Origin: Escherichia phage Mizar | Length of the DNA stretch: 64,000 nt | Sequence record: PV714129.1 | Strand: one strand, 5' to 3' | Shown here: positions 3,812-4,141 of the stretch, piece by piece | Layout: every line of letters starts with the position of its first letter | Position numbering within the stretch: position 1 is the stretch's first letter | The notes under the pieces: model-generated | The model's input: the letters and a program-made list of their open reading frames with translations, nothing else | Database searches by the model: none | Told to the model about the DNA's origin: nothing | Position numbers and translations under genes: made by a program

Positions 3812-4081
3812 TTATTTCTGTGCAATTTCGATGTAAGTTTTCAAAATATTTTGCCAATTAGGCATACCTTCTTGGACATATGCTGGAGAACCGTCTTTGT
3901 TTTTGAATGATGCAAGTTTATCAGTGGCCCAATAACCTTTAGCTCGAGCTTCAGAATCAACTTTCATCCATACTTTGTTGAAGGCATTACCATTAACTTT
4001 TGCACCATATTTTTCTACTAACTTAACTGCTTCAGCTTCCAGAACTTTTAAAGTATCTCTTAAGAAACGTGCTTTAGTCAT
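3812..4081 (-). CDS. Hypothetical protein, 89 aa, opposite strand between genes 23 and 24
   Basis: ATG confirmed at 4079-4081; SD GAGGAG 8 nt upstream; early-type promoter further upstream; no recognisable motif. Confidence 0.6.
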   Translation of the reverse strand: MTKARFLRDTLKVLEAEAVKLVEKYGAKVNGNAFNKVWMKVDSEARAKGYWATDKLASFKNKDGSPAYVQEGMPNWQNILKTYIEIAQK

Positions 4082-4110
4082 TTTGTTTACTCCTCTGTAG
4101 TTGATAAGTC

Positions 4111-4141
4111 TATAGTATCACGTACCAAATACGTTGTAAAC
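4111..4141 (-). promoter_or_regulatory. Early promoter for ORF 3812-4081
   Basis: Minus strand GTTTAC, 18 nt, TACTAT, then conserved AGACTTATCAAC. Confidence 0.45.

Follow-up and report, generated by a model that had tools for sequence, protein, structure and literature searches.

Between the late head genes 23 and 24 of Escherichia phage Mizar lies a small gene that is transcribed against both of its neighbors. It was studied in a window of 64,000 nucleotides (nt; the whole stretch of DNA analyzed, sequence record PV714129.1), and it encodes a protein of 89 amino acids (aa) that belongs to the protein family PHROG 6003. The small gene is very probably a genuine protein-coding gene of the early type. 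Its best overall explanation, held tentatively and at slightly under an even chance, is that of an accessory early gene whose product binds a partner and is not an enzyme. An earlier note, written from the bare sequence, had described an antisense open reading frame (ORF) of this length with the Shine-Dalgarno (SD) sequence GAGGAG and an early-type promoter of its own. The ORF and its SD are indeed present between genes 23 and 24 (Table 1), and the promoter gained support from the conservation of its hexamers across four genera and from the annotation of the same element in phage SA79RD. The note had also suggested that the gene might be a strain-specific insert in a variable slot. This did not hold up, as 117 records carry the gene at 95-100% identity and it keeps this position in three genera.

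The reading frame and its protein

The reading frame of the small gene, which begins with ATG and ends with TAA at 3814-3812 (-), is under purifying selection. Orthologue pairs at 61-91% protein identity gave a ratio of nonsynonymous to synonymous substitution rates (dN/dS) of 0.10-0.15, from which the small ORF is judged to be more than a product of chance. All homologues, including those of as little as 30% identity, are 84-93 aa long. Met1, Lys3, Phe6, Gly31, Asn32, Asn35 and Gln70 are invariant in the family, which also carries an invariant N-G-N-x-x-N turn. The small protein is basic, with an isoelectric point (pI) of about 9.6, and the family is basic in 17 of its 18 collected members (pI 9.2-9.9, net charge +3 to +8). 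The members are rich in aromatic residues and nearly free of cysteine (a single Cys in two of them).

With an 18-sequence alignment, AlphaFold2 returned a model with a predicted local distance difference test score (pLDDT) of 94.2 and a predicted template modeling score (pTM) of 0.80. The predicted fold is a compact three-helix bundle (helices 3-25, 31-48 and 76-88) from which a beta-hairpin (52-60/66-70) protrudes. A model based on a 7-sequence alignment had the same helices at a pLDDT of only 65 and was not used. An independent BFVD model of a member with 31% identity superposes on the predicted fold at a template modeling (TM) score of 0.87. Structure comparison against PDB and BFVD gave no informative fold relative. 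A reading of the protein as HU/IHF-like (DNABII) was dropped, since the comparison did not recover the DNABII fold.

The earlier note had recognized neither GIY-YIG nor any other motif in the protein, and searches of Pfam, NCBIfam and PADLOC agree with it. None of these collections gave a family match (PADLOC was searched with three divergent members). No GIY-YIG domain was matched in Pfam even at an expectation value (E) of up to 1, nor was one seen across the 18 members, and the small protein holds no catalytic motif. A match to Pfam DUF4859 (E 0.0029, below the gathering score) was shown by only 2 of 18 members, namely the window protein and a copy 92% identical to it, and is put down to chance. 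PDB sequence matches to mitoribosomal bS21m and to the RFC1 BRCT domain had E values of 0.05 or worse and were rejected. The best candidate for a paralogue elsewhere in the window, an ORF at 44449-44736 (-), matched the family profile with a sequence E of 0.0016 among 720 ORFs but a domain E of 0.3; it is probably also a chance match and was rejected.

The promoter module and the terminator

The promoter of the small gene, GTTTAC-N14-GTGATACTAT at 4141..4112 (-), fits the T4 early consensus GTTTAC-N14-gtggTAttaT, which is of the sigma-70 type. Its -10 hexamer, TACTAT (4117..4112, -), is directly preceded by GTGA. The -35 hexamer abuts the late promoter of gene 24 on the opposite strand, with an AT-rich stretch upstream, and the two promoters stand back to back as a divergent promoter module. 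The annotators of phage SA79RD labeled the same element a T4 early promoter. A scan with the consensus is by itself not above chance, with 2 sites found and 2.5 expected. Better evidence for the promoter comes from an alignment of the upstream regions of six phages (the window, RB69, KAW3E185, VR5, VR20 and T4), because here the hexamers are conserved while the spacer has diverged. The gene 24 late promoter, the adjoining -35 element, the -10 element and the SD are all kept in this alignment. Both hexamers are conserved in four genera; they are kept in RB69, KAW3E185 and VR5 and read ATTTAC/TATTAT in T4, and the GAGGAG SD is also kept in RB69, KAW3E185 and VR5.

Table 1. Coordinates of features at the gene 23/24 junction of the window.
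Feature	Position	Strand	Basis or remark
Gene 23	2191-3759	+	Left flank of the small ORF
Gene 23 end, last 9 codons (F RRVYVKGI stop)	3732..3759	+	Left edge of the exchangeable cassette
Gene 23 intrinsic terminator	3783..3814	+	Terminator scan, + strand only
Small ORF, 89 aa, PHROG 6003	3812..4081 (stop codon included)	-	ORF list, profile match, dN/dS, AlphaFold2
Shine-Dalgarno GAGGAG	4090..4095	-	Sequence; 8 nt upstream of ATG
Early-type promoter, -10 region GTGA-TACTAT	4112..4121	-	Promoter scan; SA79RD annotation; conserved across genera
Early-type promoter, -35 GTTTAC	4136..4141	-	Scan; SA79RD annotation; alignment
Gene 24 late promoter TATAAATA	4148..4155	+	Sequence; SA79RD annotation; invariant in the six-phage alignment
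Gene 24	4183-5466	+	Right flank of the small ORF

The terminator of gene 23, which the earlier note had placed just past the 3' end of the small ORF, was recovered there by the terminator scan. It consists of the hairpin TGGGAGAC-TTCG-GTCTCCCA at 3783-3802, with a GC-rich stem of 8 base pairs (bp) and a TTCG loop, and of a T-run at 3803-3814. The hairpin lies 9 nt beyond the stop of the small ORF, and the T-run reaches the antisense stop codon. A terminator of gene 23 was reported in all six genomes compared by Nolan (2006; PMC1524935). RNA from the minus strand still forms the hairpin, which is then followed by AAAAUAAG and not by a U-tract; a minus-strand stretch of 91 nt (window 3740-3830) folds at -19 kcal/mol with a z score of -5.5. 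As this hairpin lacks a U-tract, the early transcript may plausibly read through into antisense gene 23. A literature search found no early transcriptome of a Mosigvirus.

Sequence comparison places the window in the genus Mosigvirus, the RB69-like T-even phages. Over 1.2 kb around the small ORF, the forty best-matching records, which include ECCR664, mogra, p000v, PhAPEC2, ST0 and SHSML-52-1, show 98.4-99.2% identity to the window. The order of genes is 67, 68, 21, 22, 23, the antisense small ORF and 24, after which rnlB, 24.2, 24.3 and hoc lie on the other strand. Gene 24, which encodes the vertex protein, is single in the window and in RB69, T4, LF82-1 and 04086. Two tandem paralogues of it were seen in Gaprivervirus, in some Dhakavirus and in two uncultured T4-like contigs (VR20 L003:330-2894; VR5 L006:1-2399; L004:2337-4901; L017:2338-4897).

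The family, the slot and segD

The window protein matches the profile of PHROG 6003, a family of unknown function, over its full length (E 2.1e-45, residues 1-89 against positions 1-90 of 90), and all 18 of the collected homologues match the family too. The family includes VR7ORF190c, the fragments RB69ORF188c and RB69ORF189c, and hypothetical proteins of APCEc01 and O157 typing phage 3. No published study, function or fold class for PHROG 6003 was found in the literature. Searches by tblastn at E up to 1e-3 hit 239 phage records, 117 of them at 95% identity or more, 3 at 80-95% (these two groups being essentially Mosigvirus) and 119 below 60%. The Mosigvirus copies are always annotated as "hypothetical protein" and are 100% identical in many deposited genomes. 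Over 200 genomes already carry an annotation of the gene.

Positional orthologues with 31-38% identity occupy the 23/24 slot of Dhakavirus and Gaprivervirus. The same slot and orientation were found in VR20 (Gaprivervirus), in VR5 and 04086 (Dhakavirus), in LF82-1 and KAW3E185, and in the uncultured T4-like contigs L004 and L017. The 90-aa member from L004 (P0006, L004:5001-5273) bears the JGI name "NADPH-dependent curcumin reductase CurA", which is evidently a mis-annotation. In the Vequintavirinae (rV5-like) phage ABPH49 and related metagenomic contigs, distant members (about 35% identity) belong to long runs of small genes that share one strand and have no annotation. A copy in contig L011 lies downstream of tail genes, where these meet a replication module transcribed in the divergent direction. 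When 1.84 billion cluster representatives were scanned exhaustively with HMMER, only about 7 genuine clusters came up, all of 84-93 aa. The long hits P0015 (cytochrome-b5-like repeats) and P0016 (eukaryotic Ig-repeats) owed their scores to sums over 5-6 weak repeats and are not relatives. A scan of IMG/VR gave 9 loci and nothing beyond the Dhakavirus and Gaprivervirus types. Within the collections searched, PHROG 6003 is a narrow, phage-only family.

No Tequatrovirus record stood among the listed tblastn hits, and in Tequatroviruses such as RB51 the slot is essentially empty (83 bp). The small protein has no homologue in T4, which sets aside the possibility, raised by the earlier note, of a clear match to a T4 small ORF that is already known. 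Among the genomes compared, the small gene is a regular occupant of the slot in three genera (Mosigvirus, Dhakavirus and Gaprivervirus), whereas the T4 genus lacks it. Its near-identity throughout Mosigvirus, together with the same-slot orthologues elsewhere, makes it look like an old resident.

Several copies are broken. Two indels interrupt the ORF in the RB69 reference (L012:6292-6532), one of +1 near codon 20 and one of -1 near codon 69, and the pieces of the ORF were annotated as RB69ORF188c and RB69ORF189c. Either the laboratory strain carries a pseudogene here, or the sequence of 2003 contains an error. In mogra, a deletion of 1 nt in an A5 run at codon 23 (L028:613-881) has led to two annotated hypothetical proteins, and a Dhaka-type copy is truncated in phage 310Ecol104PP. 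All three breaks may be sequencing errors. Taken with the absence of the gene from Tequatrovirus, the broken copies suggest that it is non-essential in the laboratory.

In T4, as the earlier note had it, the 23/24 interval holds segD, which encodes a GIY-YIG homing endonuclease. The two genes are alike in slot and in antisense orientation, and both have a promoter module beside the gene 24 late promoter: upstream of segD (L014:2434-2523), T4 reads ATTTAC-N14-ATGATATTAT, which aligns with the early promoter of the small gene. The proteins differ. SegD has 223 residues and the small protein 89, and only SegD has a GIY-YIG domain. BLASTP aligned no more than 17 residues of the two (E 0.022), and the family profile scored 1-3 bits against three SegD proteins. 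The small protein is neither a nuclease nor the degraded remnant of one, and a relationship to SegD was rejected.

A different 23/24 cassette was found in KAW3E185 (Mosigvirus), LF82-1, LF82-2 and ATK48, between flanks that are 93-96% identical to the window. This swapped cassette consists of a Dhaka-type allele of the small gene, with about 31% protein identity to that of the window, and of a gene for a 219-aa GIY-YIG endonuclease 3 nt downstream. With 58% identity (E 3e-88), the endonuclease is clearly orthologous to SegD, and in KAW3E185, LF82-1 and ATK48 it follows the small gene immediately. When KAW3E185 (L013:1661-3170) is compared with the window (3560-4400), the two are nearly identical up to a point exactly 9 codons short of the gene 23 stop, and again from the gene 24 late promoter and ribosome-binding site onward. 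In the phages with the swapped cassette, the peptide at the end of gene 23 is unchanged (F-RRVYVKGI), but synonymous codons are used for it. In a comparison of this 3' end in eleven phages, the three annotated segD carriers, T4 (L014:1684-1711), KAW3E185 (L013:1833-1860) and LF82-1, read TAC TTT AGA CGY, and the seven segD-less phages (the window, RB69, SA79RD, RB51, VR5, VR20 and L004) read TAC TTC CGY CGY. The remaining phage, Dhakavirus 04086, reads TAT TTT CGT CGG. Its gene 23 annotation is truncated (1110 nt), and between its small ORF and gene 23 is an unannotated gap of 734 bp (L007:2768-3501), which is the right size for a segD-like gene. The recoding could reflect immunity of the SegD target site or merely the recombination junction of an imported cassette. 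Identical SegD sites reportedly occur in T-even phages with and without segD, which would argue against target-site immunity.

The position of segD behind the small gene in some phages makes segD look like the later arrival. The small early transcription unit would be the older occupant of the slot, and SegD-type genes would have been inserted immediately downstream of it, riding its promoter. T4 is best explained by a loss of the small gene, because SegD elsewhere stands behind that gene and T4 retains the aligned promoter-like module; segD alone would then be left behind a promoter remnant. That T4 represents the derived state is a matter of parsimony. In T4, segD was described as the sole homing-endonuclease gene oriented against its neighbors, and no promoter for it was identified (Edgell et al., PMC2988022). 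In phages that have the small gene, SegD points the same way as the gene just upstream of it, and in this it resembles other free-standing endonuclease genes.

A more far-reaching proposal has two parts. The small gene and SegD would form a mobile two-gene cassette whose homing swaps effector alleles between near-identical phages, and PHROG 6003 would be a new orphan-fold class of small basic effectors, used by T-even and rV5-like phages in the first minutes of infection against a nucleic-acid-based process or an immune sensor of the host. The swapping of alleles is suggested by the low protein identity inside nearly identical flanks and by the recoded end of gene 23. Taken jointly, the two parts are rather improbable.

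Possible functions of the small protein

The explanation preferred here, an accessory early gene for a non-enzymatic binding protein, can be laid out in a few steps. In the first minutes of infection, the small gene would be transcribed by host RNA polymerase in its unmodified form, as its promoter suggests. The protein would act stoichiometrically, by binding a partner and not by catalysis. The predicted partner is acidic and would be contacted through the conserved basic surface, the protruding hairpin or both, and a nucleic acid is somewhat likelier than a host protein. An acidic ligand is favored because the positive charge is preserved across sequences of about 30% identity. Confidence in this mode of binding is much lower than in the existence of a real early-type gene. 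As an accessory, the gene would confer a conditional advantage and could be lost under laboratory conditions.

In the main rival explanation, the protein would be a counter-defense or host-takeover effector whose target is a particular host protein (for instance an immunity sensor or a housekeeping factor), which it would bind and inhibit, without binding nucleic acid. This is possible, though we consider it unlikely. A small early gene with its own promoter in a polymorphic slot would suit such a role, as would its apparent dispensability, its presence among the clustered small early genes of virulent phages that are unrelated, and the fast divergence of its alleles relative to their flanks. 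However, matches to known anti-defense families or folds were not obtained, and the classical anti-restriction proteins that mimic DNA are acidic, unlike this basic protein. The gene is also nearly invariant in Mosigvirus (117 records at 95% or above) and has a low dN/dS, unlike the product of an arms race. The missing PADLOC match says little on anti-defense, as that library models the proteins of defense systems. An anti-defense role had been suggested by the earlier note; it is possible, yet nothing was found in its support.

A role at the level of the RNA or the locus has a small probability. In such a scheme, antisense transcription would damp premature expression of gene 23, or the promoter would serve a downstream homing endonuclease, and the protein would be secondary. 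The minus-strand hairpin without a U-tract makes antisense read-through into gene 23 plausible, segD orthologues use the transcription unit of the small gene, and T4 keeps the promoter module without the ORF. The protein, however, is under strong purifying selection and has a high-confidence predicted fold, its family also occurs in phages that lack the gene 23/24 context, and most carriers have no segD.

It is very improbable that the gene lies among head genes because its product is an internal head protein or an assembly factor. Apart from the location between genes 23 and 24, this reading can draw on a weak match to a PHROG family of "internal virion protein" (E 0.09 for the window protein, 0.0015 at best), but that match is confined to 2 of 18 members. 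The internal head proteins of T4 (IPI/II/III type) have an N-terminal capsid-targeting sequence, at whose end the gp21 protease has a conserved Leu/Ile-x-Glu site. No such conserved site is found near the N-terminus of the small protein, where position 15 of the alignment is E, D, R, Q or K. The early-type promoter and the strand opposite to the late head operon also count against a head protein, as do the members outside the T-even phages, which do not adjoin head genes. Lastly, there is next to no probability that the antisense ORF is no gene but a product of chance in a long intergenic region: its shortness, the lack of an annotated function and the split in two reference records would suit this reading, but the pattern of conservation already refutes chance, with the low dN/dS, full-length homologues of conserved length at 30-70% identity, a conserved SD and promoter, and the high pLDDT.

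Within PHROG 6003, the small protein is a plain member that differs in nothing from a family without an assigned function. It also resembles the small early genes of T-even phages (Miller et al., 2003, as cited in the SA79RD annotation) in its early-type promoter, strong SD and small product, and in being dispensable in some isolates and variably present among genera. Those genes, in contrast, mostly lie in long counter-clockwise early clusters, whereas the small gene stands alone, as a unit of one gene, within the block of late head genes and has no T4 counterpart. The small gene is an ordinary conserved hypothetical early gene, and for a T-even phage there is nothing surprising in it. Its modest value lies in a protein that is selectively maintained and confidently folded, by prediction, without a relative in sequence or structure, and that is encoded by many coliphages considered as therapeutic candidates. 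The comparison of the locus also offers a simple explanation for the odd orientation of segD in T4.
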